Shown piece by piece: positions 6,581 to 32,000 of a stretch of DNA of 32,000 nt. The DNA comes from Tannockella kyphosi (GTDB taxonomy: Bacteria > Bacillota_I > Bacilli_A > Erysipelotrichales > Coprobacillaceae): contig NZ_CP088239.1 in NCBI RefSeq assembly GCF_021054785.1, positions 330,001 to 362,000 of the forward strand, written 5' to 3'. The notes below the pieces were generated by a model. The model did no database searches. It had not been told where the DNA came from and was given only the letters and a program-made list of their open reading frames with translations. Both the position numbers and the translations under genes were made by a program. Numbering within the stretch: position 1 is the first letter of the stretch; each line of letters opens with the position of its first letter.

Positions 6581-6654
6581 TGGAGCGGGTGATGGGAATC
6601 GAACCCACGTAGTCAGCTTGGAAGGCTGAAGTTCTACCATTGAACTACACCCGC
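6581..6654 (-). tRNA. tRNA-Gly (anticodon TCC)
   Basis: Reverse complement GCGGGTGTAGTTCAATGGTAGAAC..CCTTCCAAG..GGTTCGATTCCC..CACCCGCTCCA. Cloverleaf arms, TCC in the anticodon loop, CCA encoded. Confidence 0.93.
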
Positions 6655-6660
6655 AAAAAA

Positions 6661-6749
6661 TGGTGCCCAGGGCCGGAATCGAACCGGCACGGATTTTAAG
6701 GTCCGCAGGATTTTAAGTCCTGTGCGTCTACCAGTTTCGCCACCTGGGC
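6661..6749 (-). tRNA. tRNA-Leu (anticodon TAA)
   Basis: Reverse complement GCCCAGGTGGCGAAACTGGTAGACGCACAGGACTTAAAATCCTG.. with long variable arm, GGTTCGATTCC T-loop, CCA encoded. Confidence 0.93.
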
Positions 6750-6773
6750 ATGGCTTAATGCTTCTATAAAAAA

Positions 6774-6849
6774 TGGTGACCCGCAGGCGACTCGAACGCC
6801 TGACCCTCTGATTAAAAGTCAGATGCTCTACCAACTGAGCTAGCAGGTC
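6774..6849 (-). tRNA. tRNA-Lys (anticodon TTT)
   Basis: Reverse complement GACCTGCTAGCTCAGTTGGTAGAGCATCTGACTTTTAATCAGAGGGTCAGGCGTTCGAGTCGCCTGCGGGTCACCA. Confidence 0.93.
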
Positions 6850-6858
6850 TTGTTTATT

Positions 6859-6934
6859 TGGCTGGGGTACCTGGATTCGAACCAGGGGGATGACAGAGTC
6901 AAAGTCTGTTGCCTTACCGCTTGGCTATACCCCA
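6859..6934 (-). tRNA. tRNA-Gln (anticodon TTG)
   Basis: Reverse complement TGGGGTATAGCCAAGCGGTAAGGCAACAGACTTTGACTCTGTCATCCCCTGGTTCGAATCCAGGTACCCCAGCCA. The 7-bp acceptor stem pairs perfectly. Confidence 0.92.
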
Positions 6935-6938
6935 AGAA

Positions 6939-7022
6939 TGGTGGAGAAGGGCGGATTCGAACCACCGAACCGTTAGGAACTGAGTTACAGTCAGCCGCGT
7001 TTAGCCTCTTCGCTACTTCTCC
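6939..7022 (-). tRNA. tRNA-Tyr (anticodon GTA)
   Basis: Reverse complement GGAGAAGTAGCGAAGAGGCTAAACGCGGCTGACTGTAACTCAGTT.. with long variable arm, GGTTCGAATCC, CCA encoded. Confidence 0.92.
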
Positions 7023-7026
7023 ATTA

Positions 7027-7102
<76 letters not shown>

Positions 7103-7115
7103 ATTAACTAAAAAA

Positions 7116-7191
7116 TGGTGGAGGTTAACGGGCTCGAACCGCTGACCCTCTGCTTGTAAGGCAGATGCTCTCCCAACTGAGCTAAACCTCC
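7116..7191 (-). tRNA. tRNA-Val (anticodon TAC)
   Basis: Reverse complement GGAGGTTTAGCTCAGTTGGGAGAGCATCTGCCTTACAAGCAGAGGGTCAGCGGTTCGAGCCCGTTAACCTCCACCA. Confidence 0.93.
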
Positions 7192-9697: not shown

Positions 9698-9860
9698 CTC
9701 TTATTAAGAACCACTAGATGCAGATCTAAGATGTGGTGGCAACCCTATAGCATAGAAGGTGCCCGACTAAGCAAGTTTACTTGAACAATAAGAGAAAGCT
9801 ACAAAAATGCTTTCTCTTTGGGAAGCTTTTTTTGTTTTTACAAAAAGAAAAGGAGAAAGT
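9698..9860 (+). ncRNA. SAM riboswitch of the SAM-I clan (S-box-like aptamer 9698-9794) plus expression platform
   Basis: P1 CTCTTAT (9698-9704) / ATAAGAG (9788-9794) encloses a 4-helix layout with the conserved GGCAACC...GGTGCC core, immediately upstream of metK. The P2 region deviates from the canonical GGAGGGA..GGCCC. Confidence 0.6.
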
Positions 9861-11003
9861 ATGAAAGAGAAAGTTTTATTTACATCAGAATCAGTATCAA
9901 TTGGTCATCCTGATAAAATTTGTGATCAAATATCAGATGCTATTTTAGATGAATGTTTTAAACAAGATCCTAACTCAAGAGTGGCTTGTGAAGTATTTAT
10001 AACTACTAATTATGTTGTTATTGGTGGTGAAATTACTACGAATGCGATTGTGAATTATGAACAAGTAGCAAGAGATGTATTAAAAGAAATTGGGTATGAT
10101 GACCAAGATAAAGGAATTGATTATCGAACATGTAAAGTGGAAGTTGTATTAGATAGTCAATCTGTGGATATTGCGTTAGGTACCAATGATAATGTAGGTG
10201 GTGCTGGAGACCAAGGAATTATGTTTGGTTATGCATGCAAAGAAACAAAAGGATATATGCCTTTGGCTATTTCTATTGCTCATCATTTAGTAAGAGTTGC
10301 AACAAACAAACGTTTGTCTGGTGAATTCAAACATGCTAGACCAGATATGAAAGCCCAAGTAACGATTGATTATAGTGAAGCTACTCCTAAGATTGATACT
10401 GTATTAATGTCAGTACAACATGATGGAGATTTTGATGAAGCAAAATTCCATTCTTTTATTAAAGAACAAGTAATGGATGAAGTTGTATCTAAGTATGGTT
10501 TTGATACAAATTACAAAGCTTTAATTAATCCAACTGGACGCTTTGTGATTGGTGGTCCTCATGGAGATACAGGTTTGACAGGACGTAAAATTATTGTTGA
10601 TACATATGGTGGAAGTGCTCGTCATGGTGGTGGGGCTTTTAGTGGCAAAGATCCTTCTAAAGTAGACCGTTCTGGGGCTTATATGATGCGTTATATTGCT
10701 AAGAATTTAGTAGCAGCAAATTTATGTGAACAAGTAGAATTACAAGTTTCTTATGCAATTGGTGTAAAAGAACCTACTTCTATTTTCTTAGAAACTTATG
10801 GTAGTGAGAAAGTAGAAAAAGATGTTATTTTAAAAGCAATTCGTGAGAATTTTGATTTAACACCTTCAGGGATTATTGATACGTTACAATTGCGTCAACC
10901 TATCTATAAAGCAACTGCTGCTTATGGACATTTTGGACGTAGTGATGTGGAATTACCTTGGGAAAAGTTAGACAAAGTAGAAGTACTTGCAAAGTATTTA
11001 TAA
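9861..11003 (+). CDS. metK: S-adenosylmethionine synthetase
   Basis: MKEKVLFTSESVSIGHPDKICDQISDAILD..., GDQGIMFGYA, GGGAFSGKDPSKVDRS. AAGGAGAAAG SD. The ORF-track start at 9807 lies inside the riboswitch platform. Confidence 0.95.
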   Translation: MKEKVLFTSESVSIGHPDKICDQISDAILDECFKQDPNSRVACEVFITTNYVVIGGEITTNAIVNYEQVARDVLKEIGYDDQDKGIDYRTCKVEVVLDSQSVDIALGTNDNVGGAGDQGIMFGYACKETKGYMPLAISIAHHLVRVATNKRLSGEFKHARPDMKAQVTIDYSEATPKIDTVLMSVQHDGDFDEAKFHSFIKEQVMDEVVSKYGFDTNYKALINPTGRFVIGGPHGDTGLTGRKIIVDTYGGSARHGGGAFSGKDPSKVDRSGAYMMRYIAKNLVAANLCEQVELQVSYAIGVKEPTSIFLETYGSEKVEKDVILKAIRENFDLTPSGIIDTLQLRQPIYKATAAYGHFGRSDVELPWEKLDKVEVLAKYL

Positions 11004-11636: not shown

Positions 11637-11665
11637 AAAGGATGATTCGAGTGAATCATCCTTTT
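11637..11665. terminator. Bidirectional terminator between hpf and the convergent radical SAM gene
   Basis: AAAGGATGATTC (11637-11648) gagt GAATCATCCTTT (11653-11664), T-run on the plus strand. It overlaps the last codons of the minus-strand gene. Confidence 0.7.
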
Positions 11666-12588
11666 AATTTACAGCCTTGCATATATTGTTTTTGAACCAT
11701 GAGTTTATCAATATCATTTAATATCATTACTTTTTTAATAGACCATAATGGTGCTATTAAGTCATCTATTTTTCCATCACCTGTTAATCTTTCAATGATG
11801 ATGTTTTCAGGTAAATATGCTAGTTGTTCTACTACTAGATTAATAAATTGATCTCTTGATAAAATATCAAAGGGATCTTTTTTATATATTGTTGCTAGTT
11901 TTGTGTTTTCAACAACGTATAACATATGTATTTTAATAGCTTGGATATCCAATTGACCTACTACTTTTACTGTTTCTAACATCATTTCAGGTGTTTCATA
12001 AGGAAGACCATTCATTACGTGAACGCATACATTGAGTTGATATTTTCTTGCTAATGCTAGTCCATCAAGAAATTCTTGATAAGTATGTCCTCTATTAATA
12101 AAGGTAGCTGTATTTTCATGAATGGTTTGAAGCCCTAGTTCTAACCAAATATCTTTTTTCTGGTTAACTGTATGTAAATATTCTACAATTTCGTCACTTA
12201 AACAATCTGGTCTTGTCGCAATAGCAATAGCAACAACATCTTGTTTTTCTAGGAAAGGTTCTATGCATTGTTTTATTTTTTCTATTGGACCATAAGTATT
12301 CGTATTTGCTTGAAAGTAAGCAATATATTTACAATTAGGCCATTTTACTTGCATTAATTGACTTACTTTATTGAATTGGCTATCTAGACTTTCATTTGGA
12401 TTTCCGGCAAAGTCACCACTACCACTAGAACTACAAAAAATACAACCACCATATCCTTTGGTACCATCTTTATTAGGACAAGTAAAGTCAGCGTTTAAAC
12501 TTACTTTCGCTACTTTATGATGATATTTTTGTTTTAAATGATAATTAAAAGTATGATAACGCTTGTTATCAGTTGAATAAGGGAACAT
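11656..12588 (-). CDS. TIGR01212-family radical SAM protein (YtqA-like)
   Basis: MFPYSTDNKRYHTFNYHLKQKY..., Cys cluster FTCPNKDGTKGYGGCIFC. ATG at 12588 with GGAGGTG SD. The ORF-track start at 12630 is an unsupported extension. Confidence 0.8.
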   Translation of the reverse strand: MFPYSTDNKRYHTFNYHLKQKYHHKVAKVSLNADFTCPNKDGTKGYGGCIFCSSSGSGDFAGNPNESLDSQFNKVSQLMQVKWPNCKYIAYFQANTNTYGPIEKIKQCIEPFLEKQDVVAIAIATRPDCLSDEIVEYLHTVNQKKDIWLELGLQTIHENTATFINRGHTYQEFLDGLALARKYQLNVCVHVMNGLPYETPEMMLETVKVVGQLDIQAIKIHMLYVVENTKLATIYKKDPFDILSRDQFINLVVEQLAYLPENIIIERLTGDGKIDDLIAPLWSIKKVMILNDIDKLMVQKQYMQGCKLKG

Positions 12589-12631
12589 AAAACACCTCCA
12601 ATTAGGAGGATTATAACATAAAGGAGGCATT

Positions 12632-14437
12632 ATGACACTACGATTTGAGCATATTTATAAAGCTTTTGATAAAGAATTATTTGGAGATTTAACGATCCAT
12701 TTTGGAGCAATAGGACTAATTGGTGTTGTTGGTCCAAGTGGTTGTGGGAAAACAACATTCATAAACTGTGTAGGTGGTTTAGAAGAGGTAGATAGTGGTG
12801 TAGTCGAATATGGTGGCTTGCCAATTATGTCGAATGCTCATCAAAGACAAAAGCATAGTCAAAAGAATGTTAGTTATTTGTATCAATTTTATAATTTATT
12901 ACCAGCATTAACCGTTAGAGAAAATATTCAATTTGGAATGTATTGTAAACAATATGAATGGATCGATAACCATGCACTATATAAAAAGTTAGAAATAGAG
13001 GACTTATTAGATCGTTATCCAAGTCAACTTAGTGGAGGACAAAAACAACGAGTTGCTCTTGCAAGAGCGTTTCTATGTAATAGTCCTATTTTATTGTGTG
13101 ATGAACCTACCGGGGCAATGCATCAAAAGATGGGACAACAAGTAATGAAGTTGTTACAAGATTATGGAAAAAAACATTTGGTATTGGTAGTTAGTCATGA
13201 TAAGAAGTTGTTAGAAAAATATACAAACCAAATCATTGATTTTGATGATTTAAAACATCACTATTATTTTAGTGAAAGAATATATAGTTTATGCAATTAT
13301 CCTAAGAAGTGTACTACTTCTTTTTTATTTACGATACGATATTGTTATCGTCAATTTATATATCAGAAAAATACGTATCTTAATTTATTGCTTTTACAAG
13401 CAATTACGATTACTTGTTTTTTACTATTGTTTGGAGCTAAAAGTGGTATCGAAGATTATTTTCAACAAAGTTATAATCAGTATGTTACAAAGAATATCGT
13501 GGAAGTGCAAAAGATTGATTATAGTGATAGTTCTTTTTCGAAAGAAGAACTGGAAGATATGGTTAGTGATTACCAAGGTATCTCTTATGATTATTTATTT
13601 GATGTAGGCCAATATCCTGATCTTGATGAAACAATTGTTCACACAATAATGCCTAGTGCAACGAGTCATATTGAAATAGTGTCTGGAACATTAATGAGTA
13701 ATATGAATGAAATAGTTGTAAATGAAGCTTTTTTAGATATTTATCAAGAGGAAAGTATTGTTTATTTGTTAAATGAAAAAGAGTATGTTTTTCAAATTGT
13801 AGGGGTTATTGAAGATACATTATTAGGGATGCCTAGTGTTTATTATCGCGATTTTTATATTCCAAATGAAATAGTAGAACAAATAGAAAATGATCAAAAA
13901 GTATATTTAGAGATTTTTGAAGATCAAGATATTGAAAGTGTATTAGAAAAATGGAATGATGATATCTATTATAGTTTTTCTAGTTTAGAAACAATGAAAC
14001 AAGGACAATCGTCCTTGTTTTTATTAGGAGAGGTGGTTGCTTATTTGTTTATGTTTTTAAGTTTTTCGATTTCTTTGTTATTAATACAGTTGGTATATAC
14101 AGCACTTTTATATCAAAGAAGAAAAGATAATGCGATTGCTTTTAGTAATGGGATGAGTAAGTCTAGGTTATGTTTGATCTATGCTGTACAAGGTTTTTTG
14201 TTTGGTTTTTTGGTTGCTTGTGTTGGGAATTGCCTAGGTATGCTAACAATAAGTTTGTTTTCTATTTATAATCCCTTTACCAAGTGGATTGCAATAGAAA
14301 AGTTGTTTTTATATCCGGATATTTCTATTAATTTGGGGATTCTTTTTGTTTATAGCATGTCGTGTAGTATGGTTGCTTACATAGTGAGTAGGAAATCAGT
14401 AAATGTAAAGTGTAGTGATGTAATTAAGGAGGAATAA
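12632..14437 (+). CDS. Fused ABC transporter ATP-binding domain + FtsX-type permease (MacB architecture), subunit 1
   Basis: Walker A GPSGCGKTT, signature LSGGQKQR, Walker B LLCDEPT, H-loop VSHD. Then TM1, a ~200-aa extracytoplasmic domain, and 3 C-terminal TMs with an FtsX-like loop (QRRKDNAIAFSNGMSKSRL). Confidence 0.85.
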   Translation: MTLRFEHIYKAFDKELFGDLTIHFGAIGLIGVVGPSGCGKTTFINCVGGLEEVDSGVVEYGGLPIMSNAHQRQKHSQKNVSYLYQFYNLLPALTVRENIQFGMYCKQYEWIDNHALYKKLEIEDLLDRYPSQLSGGQKQRVALARAFLCNSPILLCDEPTGAMHQKMGQQVMKLLQDYGKKHLVLVVSHDKKLLEKYTNQIIDFDDLKHHYYFSERIYSLCNYPKKCTTSFLFTIRYCYRQFIYQKNTYLNLLLLQAITITCFLLLFGAKSGIEDYFQQSYNQYVTKNIVEVQKIDYSDSSFSKEELEDMVSDYQGISYDYLFDVGQYPDLDETIVHTIMPSATSHIEIVSGTLMSNMNEIVVNEAFLDIYQEESIVYLLNEKEYVFQIVGVIEDTLLGMPSVYYRDFYIPNEIVEQIENDQKVYLEIFEDQDIESVLEKWNDDIYYSFSSLETMKQGQSSLFLLGEVVAYLFMFLSFSISLLLIQLVYTALLYQRRKDNAIAFSNGMSKSRLCLIYAVQGFLFGFLVACVGNCLGMLTISLFSIYNPFTKWIAIEKLFLYPDISINLGILFVYSMSCSMVAYIVSRKSVNVKCSDVIKEE

Positions 14438-14438
14438 G

Positions 14439-16250
14439 ATGTTAGAGTTAAGAGGAATAACTAAAACTTATCAAGAGAAGGTATTGGATGAAATATCTTT
14501 TGATTTACCTAATACTGGTTTTGTTTTATTAAGTGGTCCTTCTGGGTGTGGTAAGACAACGTTGTTGCATATTTTAGGAGGATTAGATAGTGATTATACA
14601 GGGCAATTATTATGGCAAGGAAAGGAATGTCGTAAGAATAAAAAATATCGTAAAAAAGTTTGTTTTATTTTTCAACAATTTCATTTAATAGACTATTTAA
14701 AAGCTTATCAAAATAGTATTTTATCAAGATATTTCAAGAAAACAAAGACACCATCAATGGCCTTAGACTTTCCATTAAAAAATAGATTATCTACTTATTC
14801 TGGTGGACAAAAACAAAGAATAGCTATTTTACGATGTTTGTATAATCAACCAAATATTTTGTTGTGTGATGAACCTACATCCTGTTTAGATAAATCAAAC
14901 CAACTAGAAATCATGCAACTATTAAAAGAATTGTCAAAACAGTGTTTAGTCATTGTAAGTAGTCATCAGTTAGATGAAAAGTATTTTGATGAGGTTATTA
15001 AAATGCAAGATGGGAAAATAACTTGTAAAACAAAAGCAAAAGAGAGTGGTACTTTGGTTGAAAAACAAGATTCTCAAAATCCGTATCCTTTATTTACTTT
15101 TGCTTTTTTACAAAGTAAAAGTAAATCAAAAAGAAATTTAAAAATATTGTTTGGTGTATCTTTGGCATTATTTTCTATCTTATTTAGCTTTTCTTTGTTA
15201 GAAGCAACAAATAGCCAAATCAAGGAACAAATATATAAATTACTTCCTAGTAATACCTTAACAATTTTACCGGATAGCAAAGAGTTAGAATATGAACAAA
15301 TAAAAGAAGTAACAAAGGAATATTTCACATATGTAGAATATGAGGATGCTTATTGTTTAGGGATATCATTCGATGCTAGTTATCAAAATGAAAACTGTAT
15401 TTATATTGGAGATAGCACCAAACAAATAACGAACGTAGATGTTGGGGAAGTTACAAAAAATAATAACGAAGTAGTATTGGCTAGTAGTACAGCTAAGAAG
15501 TTGCTATCATCAGGAGATGTAACTTCTATCATTGGTGAAACAGTTTATTGTTGGTATACTTATGAACAACAAGTGTTATCAATAGAATTAGAAGTAGTTG
15601 GAGTTAGTGAGGAAAGTGTTTTATTAGATACTGCATATTTTAATGAGTATAGTAATATTGCTCATATAGAGGAGTTATTTGGTAGTAATGGTTATAAAAT
15701 TATGTTAGCAATGGTAGAATTGGATTCACAGGTTGATCCATCGAAAATACAAGCCACTTTAGAAAATCAATTAGATGGTTCTAAAATAGAAGTGTCTTCT
15801 TTTACTATTAGTGATTCTATTGATGAGATATTTAGCCAAGTACAAATAGTATTGTTTCTATTTTGTGGATTAGCTATTGTTTCTGCTTGTTTTTTGGTTG
15901 GACAAGTGTTGTTTCTTTCAGTTGTAGAAAGAAAAAAAGAAATTGCTATTATACGTTGCTTTGGTGCTGATCAAAAACAAGTATTTCTATTAATTGTACT
16001 AGAGTCCATTCTTATTGTGACAGGGGCATATGTTGGTAGTGTTTTTTGTTTTTTGTTGGTCCAAGGAGTTATAAATGAATGGTTAACAACTTATTTATCA
16101 ATTGAATTAATAGGAGGTTTTTTAAATGTGAATATTGGAATGTTTAGTAAGGTTTATCTTAGTGCACTTTTTTTAAGTGTTATTTGTAGTAGCTTTCCAG
16201 CGTATTATGGATGCCAGCAAGATATTGTAGAAGCTTTAAGGGAACGTTAA
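14439..16250 (+). CDS. Fused ABC transporter ATP-binding domain + FtsX-type permease (MacB architecture), subunit 2
   Basis: Walker A GPSGCGKTT, YSGGQKQR, LLCDEPTSCLD, SSHQ. Same TM/extracytoplasmic layout, FtsX loop ERKKEIAIIRCFGADQKQV. The ATG is 1 nt after the upstream stop (TAAGATG). Confidence 0.85.
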   Translation: MLELRGITKTYQEKVLDEISFDLPNTGFVLLSGPSGCGKTTLLHILGGLDSDYTGQLLWQGKECRKNKKYRKKVCFIFQQFHLIDYLKAYQNSILSRYFKKTKTPSMALDFPLKNRLSTYSGGQKQRIAILRCLYNQPNILLCDEPTSCLDKSNQLEIMQLLKELSKQCLVIVSSHQLDEKYFDEVIKMQDGKITCKTKAKESGTLVEKQDSQNPYPLFTFAFLQSKSKSKRNLKILFGVSLALFSILFSFSLLEATNSQIKEQIYKLLPSNTLTILPDSKELEYEQIKEVTKEYFTYVEYEDAYCLGISFDASYQNENCIYIGDSTKQITNVDVGEVTKNNNEVVLASSTAKKLLSSGDVTSIIGETVYCWYTYEQQVLSIELEVVGVSEESVLLDTAYFNEYSNIAHIEELFGSNGYKIMLAMVELDSQVDPSKIQATLENQLDGSKIEVSSFTISDSIDEIFSQVQIVLFLFCGLAIVSACFLVGQVLFLSVVERKKEIAIIRCFGADQKQVFLLIVLESILIVTGAYVGSVFCFLLVQGVINEWLTTYLSIELIGGFLNVNIGMFSKVYLSALFLSVICSSFPAYYGCQQDIVEALRER

Positions 16251-16294: not shown

Positions 16295-16323
16295 GGTTAC
16301 AACAACTAGTCGTATAAATACAT

Positions 16324-16578
16324 TGAAAAGAAATAGTACATATAGAAATATTTTTAGAGAGTTCTTGGTTGGTGGAAAAGAATAATGGATCTATATCGAA
16401 TTCATCTTGGAGTAGAGTGCTGAAAAAGAAAGTAGGCATCTCCGGTAACACCCGTTATAGTGTACAAGTATAACTCGAAAGAACGTACTTGATAAGGTTT
16501 ATATAGTAATATATAAATGAACAAAGGTGGTAACACGAAGTGAATGCTCTCGTCCTTATATAGGATGGGAGTTTTTTT
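16324..16578 (+). ncRNA. T-box leader (tRNA-sensing riboswitch), specifier probably UUC (Phe), with intrinsic terminator
   Basis: AGAGA bulge (16356-16360), distal loop GGTTGGTGGAAA (16367-16378), GAA-TTC-A specifier context (TTC 16401-16403), AGTA box, F-box CCGTTA (16452-16457), T-box core AAAGGTGGTAACACG (16523-16537), terminator CTCTCGTCC/GGATGGGAG + T7 (16547-16578). Confidence 0.8.
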
Positions 16579-16616: not shown

Positions 16617-17630
16617 ATGATTATAGTAATGAAAAAAGAGGCAACGAAACAAGATGTAGCAAATGTTTCACAAATGATTGAAGACAAAGGATTAGCAGTA
16701 AGTGTAGTAGATGGACAGGGCGTTAGTGTTGTAGGTGTTATTGGGGATACAACAAAAGTCGATGCTCGCCAATTAGAAGTATTACATTCAGTAGATAAAG
16801 TAATGCATGTAGGAGAGCCTTATAAATTAGCGAACCGTGCTTTTCATCCAGAAGATTCTATTATTGATGTAGCTGGTGTTAAAGTGGGAGGAGAGAACTT
16901 AGCTTTAATTGCAGGACCATGTTCAGTAGAGAGTGTAGAACAAGTAGTAGAAATAGCAAAAGCAGCAAAAGCTGCTGGGGCAAATATGTTACGTGGTGGA
17001 GCATTCAAACCAAGAACATCACCTTATGCATTCCAAGGGATGGGAAGTAATGGATTGGATATTTTAGTAGAAGCAAAGAAAATCACAGGATTACCAATTG
17101 TATCAGAATTAATGGATGCCAGTTATATTGAAGAATTTGAAGAAAAAGTAGACTTAATTCAAATTGGAGCAAGAAACATGCAAAACTTTGATTTATTAAA
17201 AAAATTAGGGAAAGTAAAAAAACCAATCTTATTAAAGAGAGGATTATGTGCAACATTTGAAGAATGGATTATGTCAGCAGAATATATTATGGCTCATGGG
17301 AATCCAAATGTTATCTTATGTGAAAGAGGGATTCGTACATTTGAAAGCTATACAAGAAACACATTAGATTTACAAGCAATCCCAGTAGTACAAAAACTAA
17401 CACATTTACCAATTATTATTGATCCAAGTCATGCTGGAGGAAAATGGTGGTTAGTAGAACCAATGGCAAAAGCAGCAGTAGCAGCTGGATGTGACGGATT
17501 AATGGTAGAAGTACATAATAATCCAGAATGTGCAATGTGTGATGGACCACAATCATTAAAACCAGAAAAGTATGCAAAATTAATAAAAGAAGTTGGAGCA
17601 ATTGCACAAATCGTAGGAAAGAAGGTTTAA
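16617..17630 (+). CDS. aroF: 3-deoxy-7-phosphoheptulonate (DAHP) synthase, type I-beta with N-terminal ferredoxin-like regulatory domain
   Basis: 337 aa. The N-terminal ~70 aa (MIIVMKKEATKQDVANVSQMIEDKGL...) precede a KDSA/DAHPS barrel (LIAGPCSVES, LRGGAFKPRTSPY, IIDPSH). Confidence 0.88.
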   Translation: MIIVMKKEATKQDVANVSQMIEDKGLAVSVVDGQGVSVVGVIGDTTKVDARQLEVLHSVDKVMHVGEPYKLANRAFHPEDSIIDVAGVKVGGENLALIAGPCSVESVEQVVEIAKAAKAAGANMLRGGAFKPRTSPYAFQGMGSNGLDILVEAKKITGLPIVSELMDASYIEEFEEKVDLIQIGARNMQNFDLLKKLGKVKKPILLKRGLCATFEEWIMSAEYIMAHGNPNVILCERGIRTFESYTRNTLDLQAIPVVQKLTHLPIIIDPSHAGGKWWLVEPMAKAAVAAGCDGLMVEVHNNPECAMCDGPQSLKPEKYAKLIKEVGAIAQIVGKKV

Positions 17631-17631
17631 T

Positions 17632-18690
17632 ATGAAAATGATTGTAGACTTAGGGAAAGATAGTTATCCTATATTTATTGAAAAAGGAATCTTAACAAAA
17701 CTTGATTTGTATATAAAAGATGTTTTTCAAGGTAAGAAAATAATGATTATTAGTGATGACAATGTCTATGGTCATTATGGAAAACAAGTAGAAGATGTTT
17801 TATCAAAACAATATGAGGTTTCTTCTATTGTTGTAGAACATGGAGAAAAAGCAAAAAGATTTGATATTTTACCATCTTTATATAAACAATTATTAAATGC
17901 AAAAATAACAAGAACTGATTGCATTATTGCTTTAGGTGGGGGTGTTATTGGAGATTTAGCTGGCTTTGTTGCGGCTACTTATTTGCGAGGAATACCGTTT
18001 GTACAAATACCGACTTCTTTACTTGCACAAGTGGATTCTTCTGTAGGAGGGAAAGTAGCAGTTGATTTACCAGAAGGTAAGAATTTAATAGGGGCATTTT
18101 ATCATCCGAAATTAGTTTTAATTGATCCAACAACATTATTAACTCTTTCTGATCATTTTATTAGTGATGGAATGGGTGAGGTTATTAAATATGGATGTAT
18201 AAAAGATGCTAAACTATTTGAACAATTGTTAAATTATCAAGATTTTAAAGATTTATATCAAGATATTGATCAGATTATTTATCGTTGTGTTGATTGTAAA
18301 AGAATTGTTGTAGAAAATGATTTATATGATTTTGGTGATCGTTTGATTTTAAATTTTGGACATACATTGGCACACGCTATTGAACAATATTATCATTATG
18401 AAAACTATAGTCATGGTCAAGCAGTAGGTATTGGTATGGTTCAATTAACACACATTAGTGAACAAACAGGTATGACAGTTCCAGGGACTGCTGATTTAAT
18501 TGCTTCACTATTAGAAAAATATCATATTCCAACTGCTTGTGGTTTAAAGACAAAAGATTTATTACAAGCTATTTCTTTAGATAAAAAGAATATTCATTCT
18601 TCTTTGTCTTATGTCATCTTAAAAGAAATAGGGCAAACTATTATTTATAAGGGAAGTCATGACTTTGTGTTGAATAAAGAAGTGATTTAG
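17632..18690 (+). CDS. aroB: 3-dehydroquinate synthase
   Basis: 352 aa with GGGVIGDLAGFVAATYLRGIPFVQIPTSLLAQVDSSVGGK and NFGHTLAHAIE. Confidence 0.92.
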   Translation: MKMIVDLGKDSYPIFIEKGILTKLDLYIKDVFQGKKIMIISDDNVYGHYGKQVEDVLSKQYEVSSIVVEHGEKAKRFDILPSLYKQLLNAKITRTDCIIALGGGVIGDLAGFVAATYLRGIPFVQIPTSLLAQVDSSVGGKVAVDLPEGKNLIGAFYHPKLVLIDPTTLLTLSDHFISDGMGEVIKYGCIKDAKLFEQLLNYQDFKDLYQDIDQIIYRCVDCKRIVVENDLYDFGDRLILNFGHTLAHAIEQYYHYENYSHGQAVGIGMVQLTHISEQTGMTVPGTADLIASLLEKYHIPTACGLKTKDLLQAISLDKKNIHSSLSYVILKEIGQTIIYKGSHDFVLNKEVI

Positions 18691-18701
18691 GGGAAAAAAG
18701 A

Positions 18702-19982
18702 ATGACGAAATTAAAAATAACTCCAAGAAAACTAAGAGGGACTATTCAAGTCCCTCCTTCTAAAAGTTTAGCACATCGTGCTATTCTTTGTGCATCATTA
18801 GCTAATGGAATAAGCCGTATTGATAATATTCAATACTCAAAAGATATAGATGCAACAATTAAAGCAATGGAATCATTAGGTACTCAAATAATGCGTTATC
18901 ATGATTTTTTAATTATTGATGGAACTACTACTTTTAAGAAAAAGGATAGTTATATTGATTGTAAAGAATCAGGTTCAACATTACGTTTTTTAGTTCCTAT
19001 TTCTATTGTAAAAGAAAATAAAGTACACTTTGTTGGTGAAGGTAACTTAGGAAAACGTCCTTTACATACTTTTTATGAAATATTTGATCGTCAAAATATA
19101 GATTATACATGCCAAGAGGGTGTGTTGGATTTACATATAGAGGGTCAACTAAAAGCCGATGTCTATCAAATACCAGGTAATATTTCATCACAGTTTATTA
19201 CTGGATTGTTATATGCTTTACCTCTATTAGAACAAGATTCAGTGATTGAAATAACATCTCCTTTAGAATCAATTGGTTATATTGATTTAACACTTCAAAT
19301 GTTAACCATGTTTGGTATTGAAATAGAACATGAAAATTATCAAAAATATTACATAAAAGCAAACCAATCATACCATGCTATGGACTATACAGTAGAAGCT
19401 GATTTTTCACAAGCTGCATTTTATTTAGTAGCTGGTGCGATCGGAAATGATGTAACTTTAACAAACTTAAATGTAAAATCATTACAAGGAGATAAGGAAA
19501 CATTAGATATTTTAGAACGTATGAATGCTTCTATTAGCCACAATAAGGATGGCTTGAAGGTAACTGCAAAACAGTTACAAGCAACAACAATTGATGCGAG
19601 TCAATGTCCGGATGTTATTCCTGTTATTAGTTTGGCTTGTAGTCAAGCAAAAGGACATACTTCGATTATTAATGCCGGTAGACTGCGCATTAAGGAGTGT
19701 GACCGTATTGAAGCAACAAGAAGTCAGTTAAATATATTGGGAGCTAATATTGAAGAATTAGAGGAAGGGATGGAAATAGATGGAGTAACTCCACTACATG
19801 GTGGAAAGACAAGTACTTTTGATGACCATCGTATTGCCATGATGCTTGCAATAGCATGTACAATTAGTAATCAACCGATTATAATAGATAATATGGAATG
19901 TGTACAAAAGTCTTACCCTAATTTTTGGGAAGATTATCAATCACTAGGAGGAATTATTGATGAGTGCGACATGGAAGAATAA
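18702..19982 (+). CDS. aroA: 3-phosphoshikimate 1-carboxyvinyltransferase (EPSP synthase)
   Basis: 426 aa: PPSKSLAHRAILCASLA, GNLGKRP, RIKECDRI, DDHRIAMMLAIA. Confidence 0.92.
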   Translation: MTKLKITPRKLRGTIQVPPSKSLAHRAILCASLANGISRIDNIQYSKDIDATIKAMESLGTQIMRYHDFLIIDGTTTFKKKDSYIDCKESGSTLRFLVPISIVKENKVHFVGEGNLGKRPLHTFYEIFDRQNIDYTCQEGVLDLHIEGQLKADVYQIPGNISSQFITGLLYALPLLEQDSVIEITSPLESIGYIDLTLQMLTMFGIEIEHENYQKYYIKANQSYHAMDYTVEADFSQAAFYLVAGAIGNDVTLTNLNVKSLQGDKETLDILERMNASISHNKDGLKVTAKQLQATTIDASQCPDVIPVISLACSQAKGHTSIINAGRLRIKECDRIEATRSQLNILGANIEELEEGMEIDGVTPLHGGKTSTFDDHRIAMMLAIACTISNQPIIIDNMECVQKSYPNFWEDYQSLGGIIDECDMEE

Positions 19983-21027
19983 TATTGAAATATCTATTTT
20001 TGGAGAAAGTCATGGAAAAGCAATTGGTGTTTTACTCGGTAATTTACCGAGTGGAATTATTCTAGATAAAGAATTTATTCATCAAGAAATGCAACGACGT
20101 GCACCAGGTAAAAATAAAATGTCTACAGCAAGAGTAGAAAAAGATGAAGTAGAGATTATGAGTGGTGTTCTAGAAGGTAAAACAACAGGAGCTCCTTTAA
20201 TGGCAATGATTTATAACAATGATCAACACTCCAAAGATTACTCTGTTTTAAAAACACATATGCGACCAGGACATAGTGATTATCCTGCTTATATTAAATA
20301 TCTTGGGTTTAATGATGTTCGTGGAGGAGGTCATTTTTCAGGGCGTATTAGTGCCCCAATTGTATTTGCCGGAGCAATTGCTAAACTTATTTTAAAACAA
20401 AAAGGAATTGAAATAGTTGGACATATGAGTGCAATAGAAAATATCCAAGATGATTTGTTTGAAACAACAATTACAAAACAAACAGTGCAATTGTTACAAG
20501 AACAAGTTTATCCTGTTCTAAACAAAGCAATCTATTCAAAAATGCAAGAAGCTATTGAAACAGCAAGAATGGATCAAGATTCAGTTGGAGGTAAAATAGA
20601 ATGTGCTATTCTAGGAATACCAGCAGGAATTGGAGAACCTTTCTTTGATTCAATAGAAAGTCACTTAGCTAGTTTGATGTTTTCAGTACCAGCTGTAAAA
20701 GGAATTCATTTTGGAAATCGCCAAATTAGTCAGTTAAAAGGGAGTCAAGCAAATGATTGTTATGTTTATCAAGGGGAAAAAGTGACTTGTTTAACAAATA
20801 ATAATGGTGGTATTACAGGTGGTATTAGTAATGGAATGCCAATTATATTTGAAGTTGCCCTAAAACCAACTCCTTCTATTTCAAAACAACAAAATACAAT
20901 TAATGTAGAAACAAAAGAAAATACAACATTGGAAGTACATGGTCGTCATGATCCTTGTATCGTTCCTCGAGCAATCGTTGTCATTGAAGCAATGGCAGCA
21001 ATAACGATGCTTGATTTTATGAGGTAA
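19957..21027 (+). CDS. aroC: Chorismate synthase
   Basis: 356 aa: FGESHGKAIGVLLGNLPSG, RPGHSDY, GGGHFSGR, GRHDPCIVPRA. Overlaps the aroA end by 26 nt. Confidence 0.92.
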   Translation: MMSATWKNNIEISIFGESHGKAIGVLLGNLPSGIILDKEFIHQEMQRRAPGKNKMSTARVEKDEVEIMSGVLEGKTTGAPLMAMIYNNDQHSKDYSVLKTHMRPGHSDYPAYIKYLGFNDVRGGGHFSGRISAPIVFAGAIAKLILKQKGIEIVGHMSAIENIQDDLFETTITKQTVQLLQEQVYPVLNKAIYSKMQEAIETARMDQDSVGGKIECAILGIPAGIGEPFFDSIESHLASLMFSVPAVKGIHFGNRQISQLKGSQANDCYVYQGEKVTCLTNNNGGITGGISNGMPIIFEVALKPTPSISKQQNTINVETKENTTLEVHGRHDPCIVPRAIVVIEAMAAITMLDFMR

Positions 21028-21029
21028 TT

Positions 21030-22145
21030 ATGAAAGATTTAGAAACTTGTCGTCAAGAAATAGACTCATTAGATAGCCAAATAGCAAGTCTTTTTGAACA
21101 GCGTATGGCTGTTTCAAAAGATGTAATTACTTATAAGTTAGCAAATAATTTACCTATCTTTCAACCAGAAAGAGAACAAATTGTTTTAGAAAAAAATAGT
21201 CAAAGAATAAAAGATCAAGACTTACAAAAATATGCATTAAGCTTTTTTCAAGATATGATGGATACATCAAAAGCATATCAAGCTAGCTTTATTCCTTTAT
21301 CACAAGAAATAGAATTAACAAAACCAATGGAAACTACTTTAAAAGCAGGTTATCAAGGAGTACCAGGTTCTTTTTCTAATCAAGCATTACAACAATACTT
21401 TGGTAAGATAGAAAGTGTCTATTTTCCTAAATTTGAGGATGTTTATATTGCTTTAATGAATCAAACAATTGATTATGGTATTGTTCCTTTGGAAAATTCA
21501 AATACAGGTTCCATTAATGATAATTATGACTTATTACGCTTATATAACTGTTTTGTAGTGGGAGAGATTAGTATTCCTATCACACAACATTTATTAGCTA
21601 AAGAGGGAGCGAAAGTAGAAACTATTCGTGATGTATATTCACACCCTCAAGGTATTTTACAATCATCAAAATATTTAGATGAACATCCAAATATGGATTG
21701 CCATGATTTTACGAATACTGCAGCTGCAGCAAAATATGTTAGTGAACAAGATGATTTCTCCAAAGCAGCAATTGCATCATTGCAAGCTGCTAAAATATAT
21801 GGTTTAAAAGTTATTCAAGAAAATATTCATACTCAAGAAAACAATCATACTCGTTTTATTGTTATTAGTAGGAATTTAGAAAAGAATAAAAAGGCAAATA
21901 TTGTGAGTATTGTGTTTACTTTGGATCATAAAGTAGGAGCATTGTATAGTATTTTAAAAACAGTAAAAAATCATCATTTAAATCTAACTAGAATTGAATC
22001 AAGACCGATTGTAGATCAAGAATGGCAATATTATTTTTATATTGATTTTAATGGTAATTTAGAAGATAGAACAGTTCAAGTTGCATTACAACAAATGAGA
22101 AGTTATTGTTTAACATTAGATGTAATAGGAAATTATGAAGGATGA
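21030..22145 (+). CDS. pheA: Bifunctional chorismate mutase / prephenate dehydratase (P-protein) with C-terminal ACT domain
   Basis: N-terminal CM_2 helix pattern (LETCRQEIDSLDSQIASLFEQRM), PDT core (GYQGVPGSFSNQA, VPLENSNTGSI, TRFIVIS), ACT region (GALYSILKTVKNHHLNLTRIESRP). Confidence 0.9.
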   Translation: MKDLETCRQEIDSLDSQIASLFEQRMAVSKDVITYKLANNLPIFQPEREQIVLEKNSQRIKDQDLQKYALSFFQDMMDTSKAYQASFIPLSQEIELTKPMETTLKAGYQGVPGSFSNQALQQYFGKIESVYFPKFEDVYIALMNQTIDYGIVPLENSNTGSINDNYDLLRLYNCFVVGEISIPITQHLLAKEGAKVETIRDVYSHPQGILQSSKYLDEHPNMDCHDFTNTAAAAKYVSEQDDFSKAAIASLQAAKIYGLKVIQENIHTQENNHTRFIVISRNLEKNKKANIVSIVFTLDHKVGALYSILKTVKNHHLNLTRIESRPIVDQEWQYYFYIDFNGNLEDRTVQVALQQMRSYCLTLDVIGNYEG

Positions 22146-22639
22146 AAAATATTGTTTTTATTGGATTAATGGGATGTGGAAAAACAACAATAGCTTATGA
22201 ACTATCTAAAAAACTATCATTAGAAATCATTGATTTGGATCATTATATAGAAACTAAATATCAGGAAACTATTCAAGATATGTTTTGTCAAGGAGAAGAT
22301 TTATTTAGAAGTAGAGAAACAGAGTGTTGTCATGAAGTAAGTAAAAAAGAAGGCTGTATTATTTCTACAGGTGGAGGAGTTATTAAAAATAAAGAGAATA
22401 TTGATGCACTAAAAGAGAATGGATATATTATTTATATAGATCGTCCTGTAGAAAATATTGTTTTAGATGTTACTACTGCATCGAGACCTTTATTGAAGAA
22501 TGGTCCTCAAGCATTATATGATTTATATCATGAGCGTCATCATTTGTATCAAGATTATTGTGATTATCACTTTATAAATGATATTTCTTTACAAGAAGCG
22601 ATAGAAAAACTAATGGAGCATATCAATAGAAATCTTTAG
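22142..22639 (+). CDS. aroK: Shikimate kinase
   Basis: 165 aa, P-loop GLMGCGKTT, FRSRETE, STGGGV. ATGA overlap with pheA. Confidence 0.9.
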   Translation: MKNIVFIGLMGCGKTTIAYELSKKLSLEIIDLDHYIETKYQETIQDMFCQGEDLFRSRETECCHEVSKKEGCIISTGGGVIKNKENIDALKENGYIIYIDRPVENIVLDVTTASRPLLKNGPQALYDLYHERHHLYQDYCDYHFINDISLQEAIEKLMEHINRNL

Positions 22640-29721: not shown

Positions 29722-29841
29722 AAATAGTCTTTTTCACTACTCATAAATGAGCGGTGAAATAAATAATAACTCATTAAAGAGTGCTTTCTCTAAAATCGCA
29801 GATAAATAATTATAATAAGAGTGATGAAGGAGGAGGTATAC

Positions 29842-30183
29842 ATGATTGGAGAAAGAATTCAATTTTTACGTAACGAACATAACCTAAAACAAGAAGAATT
29901 AGCGAAGATATTAAAAATAGGGCATAGTACTTTGGCAGCATATGAACAAAACAAGAGAAAGCCTAAAGTGGAAACAATTATTTTAATAGCAAAATATTTT
30001 AATGTTTCTACTGATTTTATTTTAGAGTTAACAAATAAACCAGATCAACAATATAACCAAGGCAAAACTTTGGTAGATAATAAACACTTTGTATCCATAC
30101 CAGACTCTTTGTGGGATGTAGAAGTAGCAATTGATGAATTTGAGTTATTAAAGGAGTTTATCGTTTATAAATACAATAAATAA
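29842..30183 (+). CDS. XRE-family helix-turn-helix transcriptional regulator
   Basis: MIGERIQFLRNEHNLKQEELAKILKIGHSTLAAYEQNKRKPKVETIILIAKYFNVSTDFIL. GAAGGAGGAGG SD. The ATG at 29842 is preferred over the GTG at 29821. Confidence 0.85.
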   Translation: MIGERIQFLRNEHNLKQEELAKILKIGHSTLAAYEQNKRKPKVETIILIAKYFNVSTDFILELTNKPDQQYNQGKTLVDNKHFVSIPDSLWDVEVAIDEFELLKEFIVYKYNK

Positions 30184-30184
30184 G

Positions 30185-30880
30185 ATATATCGCATTGCAA
30201 TATGTGATGATGACCAACAATTTTTAGAAAAACTTCAGCAACACTTCAAACCTTATTTACATAAAATAGAACTCACATCTTATCAAGATCCTAATGAATT
30301 ATTAGAAAATATAAAACATTATCATGCAATACTAATAGATTATGAAATGAAAACGATGACAGCTTTTGATCTATTAGAAAAAATTAGAAAAGAAAACATT
30401 TTAAAAGTTATCATTAGCTCTCATAATGAATATATTTATCAAAGCTTTGCATATCATATTTTCTGGTATATCCAAAAACAACAGTTATCAAAATACTTTC
30501 CTATTATGATGGAAAAGTTAATAGAACAGATGGAACAAAATAACCAAAGGATAATATTAAATGAGGGCAGTGTTCATATTAATATTCCTAAAGAGGAAAT
30601 AAGATATATAGAAAAACAAAAGAATTATCTTTATATTCACGCAAATCAAACATATAAAATTAGATATTCATTTAAAGACTTTGTTGTTCAATTTTATGAC
30701 GATGATTTTGTAATACCAATATATGGAACAATGGTTCACATCCAAAATATAAGGTATGTACATAGTGGTAGAAAGCATCTTATATTATGGGACGATACAA
30801 CATTACCAATTAGCTATACCCATAAAAACAATCTCTTACAAAGAACAAATGCATATAAAATGAAAAGACCAAACAGTTAG
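30185..30880 (+). CDS. LytTR-family response regulator (AgrA-like). The receiver-domain N-terminus is in frame but lacks a canonical start codon, so it may be a pseudogene or use a non-canonical/coupled start
   Basis: The frame is open from 30152. From 30185 it reads IYRIAICDDDQQFLEKLQQHFKP...AILIDYEMKTMTAFDLLEKIR...VIISSHNEY (REC-like), then a LytTR domain (IPKEEIRYIEKQKNYLYIHANQTYKIRYSFKDF...). The first ATG/GTG/TTG in frame is at 30347. Confidence 0.6.
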   Translation: MYRIAICDDDQQFLEKLQQHFKPYLHKIELTSYQDPNELLENIKHYHAILIDYEMKTMTAFDLLEKIRKENILKVIISSHNEYIYQSFAYHIFWYIQKQQLSKYFPIMMEKLIEQMEQNNQRIILNEGSVHINIPKEEIRYIEKQKNYLYIHANQTYKIRYSFKDFVVQFYDDDFVIPIYGTMVHIQNIRYVHSGRKHLILWDDTTLPISYTHKNNLLQRTNAYKMKRPNS

Positions 30881-30891
30881 TTTGGTCTTTT
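30863..30891. terminator. Bidirectional terminator between the LytTR gene and convergent agrD
   Basis: AAAAGACCAAAC (30863-30874) agtta GTTTGGTCTTTT (30880-30891), a 12-bp stem with flanking A/T runs. Confidence 0.75.
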
Positions 30892-30909
30892 AAAAGAAAG
30901 AGTGATTTT

Positions 30910-31035
30910 TTATTTGTTATTTAATTTGGCAGGCATTTCTGGTTCATATAACCAGAAGAATGTTCCAATATTGCTTGCTGAAAGTGCAATAGCACAGATA
31001 CCTAAACATAATAATGATTTAAATTGTTTTTTCAT
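30910..31035 (-). CDS. agrD: AgrD-like autoinducing peptide precursor (41 aa), not in the ORF track
   Basis: MKKQFKSLLCLGICAIALSASNIGTFFWLYEPEMPAKLNNK. AAGGAG 8 nt upstream, 17-nt overlap with the end of the AgrB-like gene, AgrD-like tripartite layout and YEPxxPxKL tail. Confidence 0.7.
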   Translation of the reverse strand: MKKQFKSLLCLGICAIALSASNIGTFFWLYEPEMPAKLNNK

Positions 31036-31534
31036 GTGATAATCTCCTTAATATAATTAATAATATAGTTATTAGTACTGCTAAAAACATACAAAAACTA
31101 ATAGTAGAATTTAAGCAATACACGATGTAAAAAGCAATGAACATGATACCGTGGATAAATAAGTTCTTTTCATAAGAAACTAAGTAATTAATTACTAATA
31201 ACACTGCAAAAACATAATATATATATCTAGGCGCAGCTACTGTATGTATCATCGTTGTTGTTAAAAACATGAGAATATTAGAACATATAGTACATTGTAA
31301 AAATGTTTTGCAGTGATAGCTTTTATGTGCTTTACGAAAAGGGACAAAAATAATATTAAATAAAACAAATTCATAAAACAACCCACATGTAATAGAGACT
31401 AGTATTGCTAATGCAGTGTTAATGGTTGTTGTTATTATTGCTTCGATACCATATCTTAATATTTGAATGTCCTCTAAGTCATCGCTTACTGTAATTTTAT
31501 GTGCTAACTTATTTGATAATCCAATAATGTTCAT
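31019..31534 (-). CDS. agrB: AgrB-like accessory gene regulator B (AIP-processing membrane peptidase)
   Basis: 171 aa, multi-TM. N-terminal ..DLEDIQILRYGIEAI.. and FRKAHKSYHCKTFLQCTICS, where His and Cys are 7 residues apart as in S. aureus AgrB H77/C84 (..RRHAHGAHAPSSFWC..). AAGGAG SD. Confidence 0.8.
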   Translation of the reverse strand: MNIIGLSNKLAHKITVSDDLEDIQILRYGIEAIITTTINTALAILVSITCGLFYEFVLFNIIFVPFRKAHKSYHCKTFLQCTICSNILMFLTTTMIHTVAAPRYIYYVFAVLLVINYLVSYEKNLFIHGIMFIAFYIVYCLNSTISFCMFLAVLITILLIILRRLSHEKTI

Positions 31535-31557
31535 ATAAATCTCCTTCTTTCTACGAA

Positions 31558-31586
31558 ATCATACTAAAATAGTGTGGAATTGTAAA
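31558..31586 (-). promoter_or_regulatory. Putative agrBD promoter
   Basis: Minus strand reads TTTACA (31586-31581), 17 nt, TATGAT (31563-31558), about 20 nt upstream of the agrB SD. Confidence 0.5.
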
Positions 31587-31620
31587 CAATGTGGTAAAAT
31601 TATAACAATAGAGGTAAAAT
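31585..31620. repeat. Imperfect tandem direct repeat, candidate LytTR-regulator binding site
   Basis: AACAATGTGGTAAAAT (31585-31600) and AACAATAGAGGTAAAAT (31604-31620). Period ~19-20 bp, abutting the -35 of the agrBD promoter. Confidence 0.45.
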
Positions 31621-31633
31621 ATGGAGGTTTTTG

Positions 31634-32000
31634 ATGGATATAGTCATTTTATTAGTTTTTGCTTTTGGAGAAATGTTTTTATGTTTGTTGTTATGTGATG
31701 TATTTTTGAAGTATAAAGATACAAAGTTAGGGACAAAGATTATTTTGTCTGTTGTTTATGGTGTAATGATGCACTATGTGGGTGTGGTTGATAATAATGG
31801 TATTTTTTCATTTGTAATCTTTTTGTTTTGTTTATTTGTTTATGGTTATTTATCAACGGGGACAAATTTTAGAAAAATAATAATGACAGTATTTTTGGTT
31901 GCAGTGAATTTAATGGTTATTAATGCATTATTTTTGGTATTAGCGTTTTTAAGTGCGGAATCAACTACTAGTTTGTTGAATGGTACAGAATCAGAGGTGC
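31634..32000 (+). CDS. Multi-TM membrane protein, N-terminal part (3' end outside window). Possibly the sensor domain of an AgrC-like histidine kinase
   Basis: GGAGG 6 nt before the ATG at 31634. Open to the window end: MDIVILLVFAFGEMFLCLLLCDVFLKYKDTKLGTKIILSVVYGVMMHYVG...MTVFLVAVNLMVINALFLVLAFL.. (at least 4 hydrophobic segments). The kinase call is based on context only. Confidence 0.4.
   Translation, partial: MDIVILLVFAFGEMFLCLLLCDVFLKYKDTKLGTKIILSVVYGVMMHYVGVVDNNGIFSFVIFLFCLFVYGYLSTGTNFRKIIMTVFLVAVNLMVINALFLVLAFLSAESTTSLLNGTESEV

Follow-up and report, generated by a model that had tools for sequence, protein, structure and literature searches.

Threonine at the predicted ring-closing position of AgrD-type autoinducing peptide precursors in Tannockella kyphosi and related Coprobacillaceae

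A stretch of 32,000 nucleotides of Tannockella kyphosi (Coprobacillaceae, Erysipelotrichales), in the following called the window (NCBI RefSeq assembly GCF_021054785.1, contig NZ_CP088239.1, positions 330,001 to 362,000), contains near its end an agr-type quorum-sensing locus, whose agrD gene (30910..31035, minus strand) codes for a 41-amino acid precursor of an autoinducing peptide (AIP). In this precursor a threonine, Thr25, stands where the AgrD family has the ring-closing Cys (thiolactones) or Ser (lactones), and the same Thr is conserved in related precursors. The reading favoured here, to which slightly better than even credence is given, is that the AgrB peptidase of T. kyphosi makes a five-residue Thr-lactone with the ring (T-F-F-W-L). 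That AgrB-type peptidases of this Coprobacillaceae clade close a ring via the side chain of Thr, at whatever ring size, is considered probable; such peptides would constitute a third class of AIPs, beside the Cys-thiolactones and the Ser-lactones.

Translation of the open reading frame (ORF) at 30910..31035 yielded MKKQFKSLLCLGICAIALSASNIGTFFWLYEPEMPAKLNNK, which can be divided into a leader (M1-G24), the predicted ring (T25-L29) and a tail for recognition by AgrB (Y30-K41), with the stop codon at 30910-30912. The predicted ring segment, T25-F26-F27-W28-L29 (30949..30963, minus strand), has the codons ACA TTC TTC TGG TTA, that of T25 being at 30961-30963, as had been read in a first-pass annotation of the window; the carboxyl group of L29 is the predicted acyl donor. 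The C-terminal follower peptide, YEPEMPAKLNNK (30913..30948, minus strand), is predicted to be removed by AgrB. Counted from the cleavage site between L29 (-1) and Y30 (+1), its residue +2 is Glu, and the Pro that is invariant in the family stands at +6. The only cysteines of the precursor are C10 and C14, and closure through S19 or S21 would result in rings of 11 or 9 residues, respectively; the first-pass annotation had given the same residues and ring sizes.

The ORF is a real gene and not a chance ORF, as several signals show. The NCBIfam model TIGR04223, "AgrD family cyclic lactone autoinducer peptide", matched the translation with 23.9 bits (E 3.5e-5; cut-off 19). The 5' end of agrD overlaps the 3' end of agrB by 17 nucleotides, and a Shine-Dalgarno sequence, AAGGAGA (31043..31049, minus strand), can be read 7 nucleotides 5' of the agrD ATG, within the 3' end of agrB. 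Directly 3' of agrD an intrinsic terminator closes the agrBD transcript (30863..30891, minus strand; 12-bp stem, 5-nucleotide loop, T-rich tail); it was the sole terminator-like site in 30300-32000, where 0.4 were expected from shuffled sequences. To these signals is added the conservation at the protein level, with mostly synonymous DNA changes, in the related loci described below. The Pfam model AgrD (PF05931) gave no match to the T. kyphosi AgrD even at E<=10. Both proteins occur unchanged in public databases under Tannockella kyphosi, the AgrB named as a member of the AgrB family and the peptide, by RefSeq, as one of the AgrD family, and the agrD DNA was identical across 8 independent metagenome contigs. 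The identity of the gene is regarded as solid. The precursor resembles the AgrD family in that its ORF is small (about 40-55 amino acids in the family) and lies directly 3' of agrB, and in that its tail has an acidic residue close to the point of cleavage as well as Pro at +6 (Y30-E31-P32-E33-M34-P35); at -5, where the family usually closes the ring with Cys (thiolactone) or Ser (lactone), there is Thr. By its profile match the T. kyphosi peptide is therefore an AgrD that lacks one defining feature of the family, the ring-closing Cys or Ser.

The placement of T25 in the ring-closing column was examined with the profile and with multiple alignment. The reference AgrD precursors used for comparison have the ring sequences tabulated in PMC12312760. 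The match to TIGR04223 was equally long in protein and profile, for the T. kyphosi AgrD as well as for the reference precursors, and is therefore most likely ungapped. Position 23 of the profile is then occupied by C28 of Staphylococcus aureus AgrD-I, C32 of the Listeria precursor, C28 of that of Clostridium perfringens, S27 of that of Staphylococcus pseudintermedius and T25 of T. kyphosi, and also by Thr in three relatives. Alignment with MAFFT put T25 into one column with the Cys or Ser of five reference AgrDs; among the 12 AgrDs aligned, P35 (+6) was the sole invariant column. Both the profile and the MAFFT alignment agree with the cleavage between L29 and Y30 and the Pro +6 register which had been assumed in the annotation.

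Single-substitution variants of AgrD were also scored against TIGR04223, where the wild type has 23.9 bits. At -5 the score rose to 30.8 bits with T25C (+6.9) and to 27.5 bits with T25S (+3.6), stayed at 23.9 bits with T25A (no change) and was 19.2 bits with T25V. Introduction of Cys at -6 (G24C) resulted in 28.2 bits (+4.3), while Cys at -9 (S21C, 22.9 bits), -8 (N22C, 21.1 bits) or -4 (F26C, 24.2 bits) brought no gain. On the basis of these variant scores T25 is in the main nucleophile column of the profile, and the register can be considered firm; the earlier claim that Thr stands at the Cys/Ser position is thus borne out by profile position 23, by MAFFT and by the variants. Since the profile scores Thr like Ala at column 23, Thr lies outside the known repertoire of the family.

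Relatives of the precursor were obtained by several routes. An exhaustive phmmer search provided a single true relative, P0005; three long matches turned out to be repetitive proteins, not relatives. P0007 was added by a profile word search, and L012, from the third lineage, was recovered when metagenomes were scanned for H-[KR]-x-Y-H-C-x-T-F-x-x-C, a signature of these AgrBs; a second match to this pattern, L013, is situated inside a 735-amino acid surface protein and represents a chance match. Cluster look-ups yielded further variants and showed that the third lineage is Thomasclavelia cocleata, also of the Coprobacillaceae, whose peptide was found on >500 contigs, complete genomes among them. 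Word-based protein searches with AgrB and AgrD returned the query alone, two genome-contig scans with AgrB found no relative, and no match was obtained with tblastn of AgrB against plasmids and phages, with a PDB sequence search with AgrB or with a viral-contig scan for W-L-Y-E-P-x-x-P-A-K.

All of the 15 distinct related precursors, which belong to three lineages (T. kyphosi, a metagenomic lineage 2 and T. cocleata), have Thr at -5. Its codon is ACA or ACT, from which Ser, Ala and Ile are each one base change away. The core and cleavage site read SASNIGTFFWL/YEPEMP in T. kyphosi, [ED][TS]P[NA]TWFW[LM]/YEPK[KT]P in lineage 2 (L001, L003, L018, P0008-P0010) and DS[PA]NTW[IT]WM/YEPK[RK]P in the T. 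cocleata group, the slash indicating the cleavage site; Y-E-P..P of the follower peptide is thus common to T. kyphosi and its relatives. Position -6 is Gly, Asn or Ala in all members and never Cys, Ser or Thr. The precursor of T. cocleata contains no Cys at all, and the cores of P0005, P0008 and P0009 contain neither Ser nor Cys. Scores of the relatives against TIGR04223 were 16.7-21.6 bits (cut-off 19). According to the first-pass annotation, Cys or Ser at the aligned position of orthologues would mark the Thr as a degenerate allele; the relatives carry Thr instead, and its conservation across the Coprobacillaceae clade, which is regarded as solid, removes this explanation. As far as sequence goes, the interpretation given in that annotation is supported.

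Within lineage 2, synonymous and replacement changes were in the proportions 11:4, 7:6 and 10:7 (42 codons), and replacements were absent from -5 to -2 and from +1 to +4; by these counts agrD is under purifying selection. The alignment of T. kyphosi with lineage 2 is ungapped from the AIA motif of the leader to the C-terminus. In it T. kyphosi has Asn at -8, and the others have Glu or Asp at -9; therefore -5 is the sole homologous position with a hydroxyl group in all members. The five-residue Thr-lactone is favoured for this reason and because known five-residue lactones close at -5. The experimentally defined ones all do so, even with Ser or Thr nearby, for example RIPT[STGFF] and the Clostridium thermocellum peptide S25-F29 (PMC12312760, PMC5322536). 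Also, the cores of P0005, P0008 and P0009, being free of Ser and Cys, would need a Thr ester at any ring size, unless their product is linear.

The agrB gene (31019..31534, minus strand) codes for a 171-amino acid membrane cysteine peptidase/cyclase (Pfam AgrB, E 7e-19). Its R67, H74 (31313-31315) and C81 (31292-31294) correspond to R70, H77 and C84 of S. aureus AgrB, for which the roles of the residues have been described (PMC10196373), and none of the three varied when the protein was aligned to S. aureus AgrB and to the AgrBs of four relatives. Seven residues separate the catalytic His from the catalytic Cys, and the conserved Arg accompanies them, as in agr systems; this set of catalytic residues is considered solid. 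The AgrBs of the relatives are 33-40% identical to that of T. kyphosi. Within residues 67-81 (31292-31336, minus strand) the clade has H-K-[GS]-Y-H-C vs. H-G-A-H-A in S. aureus, with a conserved extra cysteine, Cys75, beside the catalytic His74.

For the chemical steps, which are deduced by analogy, the following scheme is proposed. As in S. aureus, Cys81 of AgrB, together with His74, would cut between L29 and Y30, release the follower peptide and hold the remaining peptide as a thioester of Leu29. The side-chain hydroxyl of Thr25 would then attack this thioester, with formation of a five-residue macrolactone. Extracellular trimming of the leader could leave 0-4 exocyclic residues from S-N-I-G; alternatively, a tail-free lactone might result from the trimming, which would be able to rearrange via an O-to-N acyl shift. 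The calculated [M+H]+ values are 695.3551 for cyclic TFFWL (linear 713.3657) and 1066.5356 for cyclic SNIGTFFWL (linear 1084.5462), and, for T. cocleata, 718.3381 for cyclic TWIWM and 1016.4659 for cyclic SPNTWIWM (linear 1034.4764).

Among the closest described counterparts are the Ser-lactones, i.e., RIPT[STGFF] of S. pseudintermedius/intermedius, the product of Hungateiclostridium (Clostridium) thermocellum AgrD Clo1313_2818 and the Agr2 peptide of C. difficile, for which NSA[SSWVA], a five-residue Ser lactone, has been predicted (PMC12312760, PMC5322536). What they have in common with the T. kyphosi precursor is the hydrophobic ring, Pro at +6 and, if Thr25 closes the ring, an oxygen as nucleophile at -5; even the numbering of the C. 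thermocellum AgrD, S25...F29/Y30...P35, is the same as T25...L29/Y30...P35 in T. kyphosi (PMC5322536). They differ in that Ser is a primary alcohol and Thr a secondary one, and in that TIGR04223 rewards Ser, but not Thr. The AIP of Listeria monocytogenes, A[CFMFV], whose ring sequence agrees with PMC12312760, has a very similar junction, CFMFV/YEPKSP compared to TFFWL/YEPEMP and TWFWL/YEPKKP, likewise a five-residue hydrophobic ring and the same profile positions, although it is a Cys thiolactone and the operon order is agrBDCA, whereas T. kyphosi has a divergent agrC, a convergent regulator and an extra helix-turn-helix (HTH) gene. The S. aureus system resembles that of T. kyphosi in the three AgrB residues mentioned above, in agrD being directly 3' of agrB, in Glu at +2 and Pro at +6, and in a kinase with HATPase_c_5 and a LytTR regulator. 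However, the two AgrBs are only 16% identical, that of T. kyphosi being 12 residues shorter in a cytoplasmic loop and having the extra conserved Cys75; the gene order differs, and Thr takes the place of Cys28.

A primer from 2025 lists rings closed by Cys or Ser only (PMC12312760), and the same Cys/Ser rule of closure is stated in recent mining papers (PMC11953309, PMC8251862). Neither a Thr-closed AIP nor these ring sequences, nor agr in Erysipelotrichia or T. cocleata, were found in the full-text literature searched, beyond which further papers may exist; this agrees with the opinion in the first-pass annotation that a Thr-linked AIP is undescribed.

The composition of the remaining locus is likewise regarded as solid. 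Its order is a divergent agrC, agrB-agrD, and then, convergent with these, an HTH gene and the LytTR regulator. The gene for the agrC-like histidine kinase is divergent from agrBD and has only its 5' part in the window (31634..32000, plus strand), extending past it to 430 amino acids in full. The full-length kinase, taken from contigs with an identical locus, matched Pfam HATPase_c_5 (E 2.6e-20), the domain of HPK10-type kinases, and is 30% identical, from end to end, to the kinase encoded at L001, a related locus. The agrA-like response regulator of the LytTR family (30200..30880, plus strand) is convergent with agrBD and contains the Pfam domains Response_reg and LytTR. Directly 5' of it is a gene for an XRE/HTH_3 regulator of about 110 amino acids (29821..30183, plus strand; Pfam HTH_3, E 1e-15), the true start of which is likely M8 at 29842. 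Compared to the proteins encoded beside agrD in the other lineages, the HTH_3 protein has identities of 55% in L001 (6883-7215), 50% in L018 (6888-7241) and 38% in T. cocleata (L015 7157-7492). An orthologue of it adjoins agrBD in all three lineages, though the remaining gene order differs; it would thus seem to be a fifth, conserved part of this form of the agr system.

All three lineages carry an AgrC-like kinase, a LytTR regulator and the HTH gene, and agrB and agrD are placed in L001, L003, L018 and T. cocleata as they are in T. kyphosi. Because lineage 2 has the same adjoining cytidylate-kinase-like gene (60% identity to that of T. kyphosi), vertical inheritance of the locus in related genera is suggested. 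In T. cocleata (CP068170.1; L015 4381-5661, minus strand), the kinase-like protein beside the agr genes aligns to T. kyphosi AgrC over the membrane and dimerisation regions with 23% identity. No Pfam HATPase match was obtained for this protein, in which the domain for ATP binding may have diverged strongly or degenerated.

A promoter-like site for agrBD was recognised at 31558..31586 (minus strand; TTTACA, 17 nucleotides, TATGAT) by its match to the consensus at 10 of 12 positions. Abutting the -35 element of this site, in the agrC-agrB intergenic region, is a pair of direct repeats, G[TA]GGTAAAAT, having a 20-nucleotide period (31591..31620, plus strand); in a direct pattern search, 0 such 10-nucleotide pairs were expected by chance. 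Analogous 12-nucleotide direct repeats, CC[GA]TTTTTCCCT, occur twice with 20-nucleotide spacing 5' of agrB in L001 (5406-5437), and the repeats of both loci contain TTTT[AT]CC in the orientation of agrB. LytTR activators usually bind directly 5' of the promoter -35, and we infer that the repeats are a candidate binding site (LytTR boxes) for the regulator. In the proposed regulatory loop the AgrC-like kinase would sense the peptide and activate the LytTR regulator, which would probably bind the direct repeats 5' of the agrBD promoter. Taken together, the locus is a complete agr-type quorum-sensing system, which is apparently functional.

Several points weigh against a five-residue Thr-lactone. 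Closure by a secondary alcohol is not known for any AgrB-type enzyme, and such an alcohol (Thr) attacks less readily than Ser or Cys. With no more than three independent lineages, the constancy of Thr carries modest weight; W(-2), which is not a nucleophile, is equally invariant. Ser or Thr are present also at -8 (relatives) or -9 (T. kyphosi). The [S/T]PN and the end W-[ML] resemble GBAP of Enterococcus faecalis, QN[SPNIFGQWM], the Ser of which was put by MAFFT into the -8 column. In the AgrB of T. kyphosi alone, Ser72 is found at the equivalent of S. aureus G75, where the relatives have Gly; in S. aureus G75 is needed for activity (PMC10196373). Finally, the receiver domain of the regulator lacks an ATG, GTG or TTG start. 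Its frame is open from 30152 and aligned from residue 1 of the L001 regulator, the Met of which aligns to ATA at 30185; the RefSeq product (WP_249030570.1) has 226 amino acids, starting from ATA at 30200, and if translation began at 30347, where the first ATG is, the phospho-acceptor Asp would be lost. Either genuine initiation at ATA/ATT or a recent loss of the start codon may account for this. A truncated pseudogene was rejected in view of the open frame, the homology from residue 1 and the RefSeq product. Two other ways of closing a ring were also discarded. A thiolactone via C10 or C14 of the leader would need a ring of 16-20 residues, and the T. cocleata precursor is without Cys; a six-residue ring, as in some clostridia, is at variance with Gly, Asn or Ala at -6.

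The resemblance to GBAP, in which a homologue of AgrB closes a nine-residue ring as a Ser lactone (PMC12312760), leads to the alternative of a larger lactone, which is thought unlikely but not negligible. The ring would be closed by Ser21 (-9) in T. kyphosi, giving the nine-residue S-N-I-G-T-F-F-W-L, and in the relatives by their Ser or Thr at -8, with the sequence [S/T]-P-N-T-W-x-W-[LM], and Thr25 would be a conserved receptor contact inside the ring. Such a different ring size had been raised in the first-pass annotation as an alternative, but with too little weight, considering how closely the motif of the relatives resembles GBAP. The start S-P-N and the end W-M of GBAP recur in SPNTWIWM of T. 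cocleata; a residue with a hydroxyl group is present at -8 or -9 in each of the 15 peptides, in T. kyphosi a Ser at exactly -9 as in GBAP, and Ser is the better nucleophile. On the other hand, the closing position would not be homologous, given Asn at -8 in T. kyphosi and Glu/Asp at -9 elsewhere, and the ring size would differ among close relatives. As -8 alternates between Ser and Thr within one 90%-identity group, some members would still need a Thr ester. GBAP has no Thr at -5, and for its precursor, FsrD, no match to TIGR04223 was obtained at E<=10, in contrast to all four representatives of the family; moreover, Cys at -8 or -9 lowers the profile score of the T. kyphosi AgrD. Ser and Thr are common in exocyclic tails and are not used there for closure, e.g., in S. 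aureus AIP-I, YST[CDFIM].

Formation of no ring at all seems still less likely than a large one. The acyl-enzyme of AgrB would be hydrolysed, yielding a linear peptide which ends in ...TFFWL, or the peptide would have a role other than that of a cyclic AIP. The poor nucleophilicity of Thr, the lack of a Thr-closed AIP in the literature searched and the profile, which rates Thr no better than Ala at the ring-closing column, would fit this possibility. It leaves, however, the strict conservation of Thr unexplained, with three other residues in reach of one base change, and a full catalytic and sensing set has been kept in three lineages; moreover, linear AIP analogues were inactive in the systems tested (PMC12312760, PMC5322536). 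Decay of the system, with Thr as a loss-of-function allele and a locus no longer signalling in T. kyphosi, appears very improbable. The sole hints are the regulator without ATG, with ATA aligned to the Met of its homologue, and Ser72 of AgrB at the S. aureus G75 site; against them stand Thr in all three lineages, including a T. cocleata peptide present on hundreds of contigs, the purifying selection on agrD and its identity in independent metagenomes, the intact catalytic R/H/C of AgrB, and a regulator frame which is open over its full length with receiver and LytTR domains and is annotated by RefSeq as intact from ATA.

Other features of the window, apart from the agr locus, were also noted. 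A T-box leader (16314-16560, plus strand; 126 bits) lies 5' of a complete shikimate/aromatic amino acid operon (16617-22639) with genes for DAHP synthase, DHQ synthase, EPSP synthase, chorismate synthase, chorismate mutase-prephenate dehydratase and shikimate kinase. An S-adenosylmethionine (SAM) riboswitch (S-box; 9698-9794, plus strand) is directly 5' of the gene for S-adenosylmethionine synthetase (9807-11003), and seven tRNA genes are clustered at 6584-7191 (minus strand). Two adjoining genes for proteins of 600 amino acids, each a fusion of an ABC ATPase with a permease of the FtsX/MacB type, occupy 12632-16250 (plus strand), beside a divergent radical-SAM gene (11656-12630, minus strand). 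An ORF of 273 amino acids (5726-6547, plus strand), located 3' of a YunB-like sporulation gene, was without Pfam match at E<=1e-5.

By sequence comparison, the finding extends from a single gene to a conserved clade of Coprobacillaceae. The overall picture of agr signalling would be unchanged and the impact is thus moderate. Descriptions of AIPs and rules for genome mining assume ring closure by Cys or Ser (PMC12312760, PMC11953309, PMC8251862); if the Thr-closed ring is correct, structure predictions made on this basis would miscall or miss some signals of gut commensals. Since the cores of some members are without Ser and Cys, a Thr ester should then hold for at least part of the family at a ring size of five or eight. 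Thomasclavelia cocleata (DSM 1551, with a complete genome) and Tannockella kyphosi are both cultured, and the question should be easy to test. The Thr clade would widen the known chemistry of AgrB to secondary alcohols, and it would provide a natural ester variant for studies of signal stability, because a beta-methyl secondary ester may differ in its hydrolytic stability and in its tendency for acyl shift.

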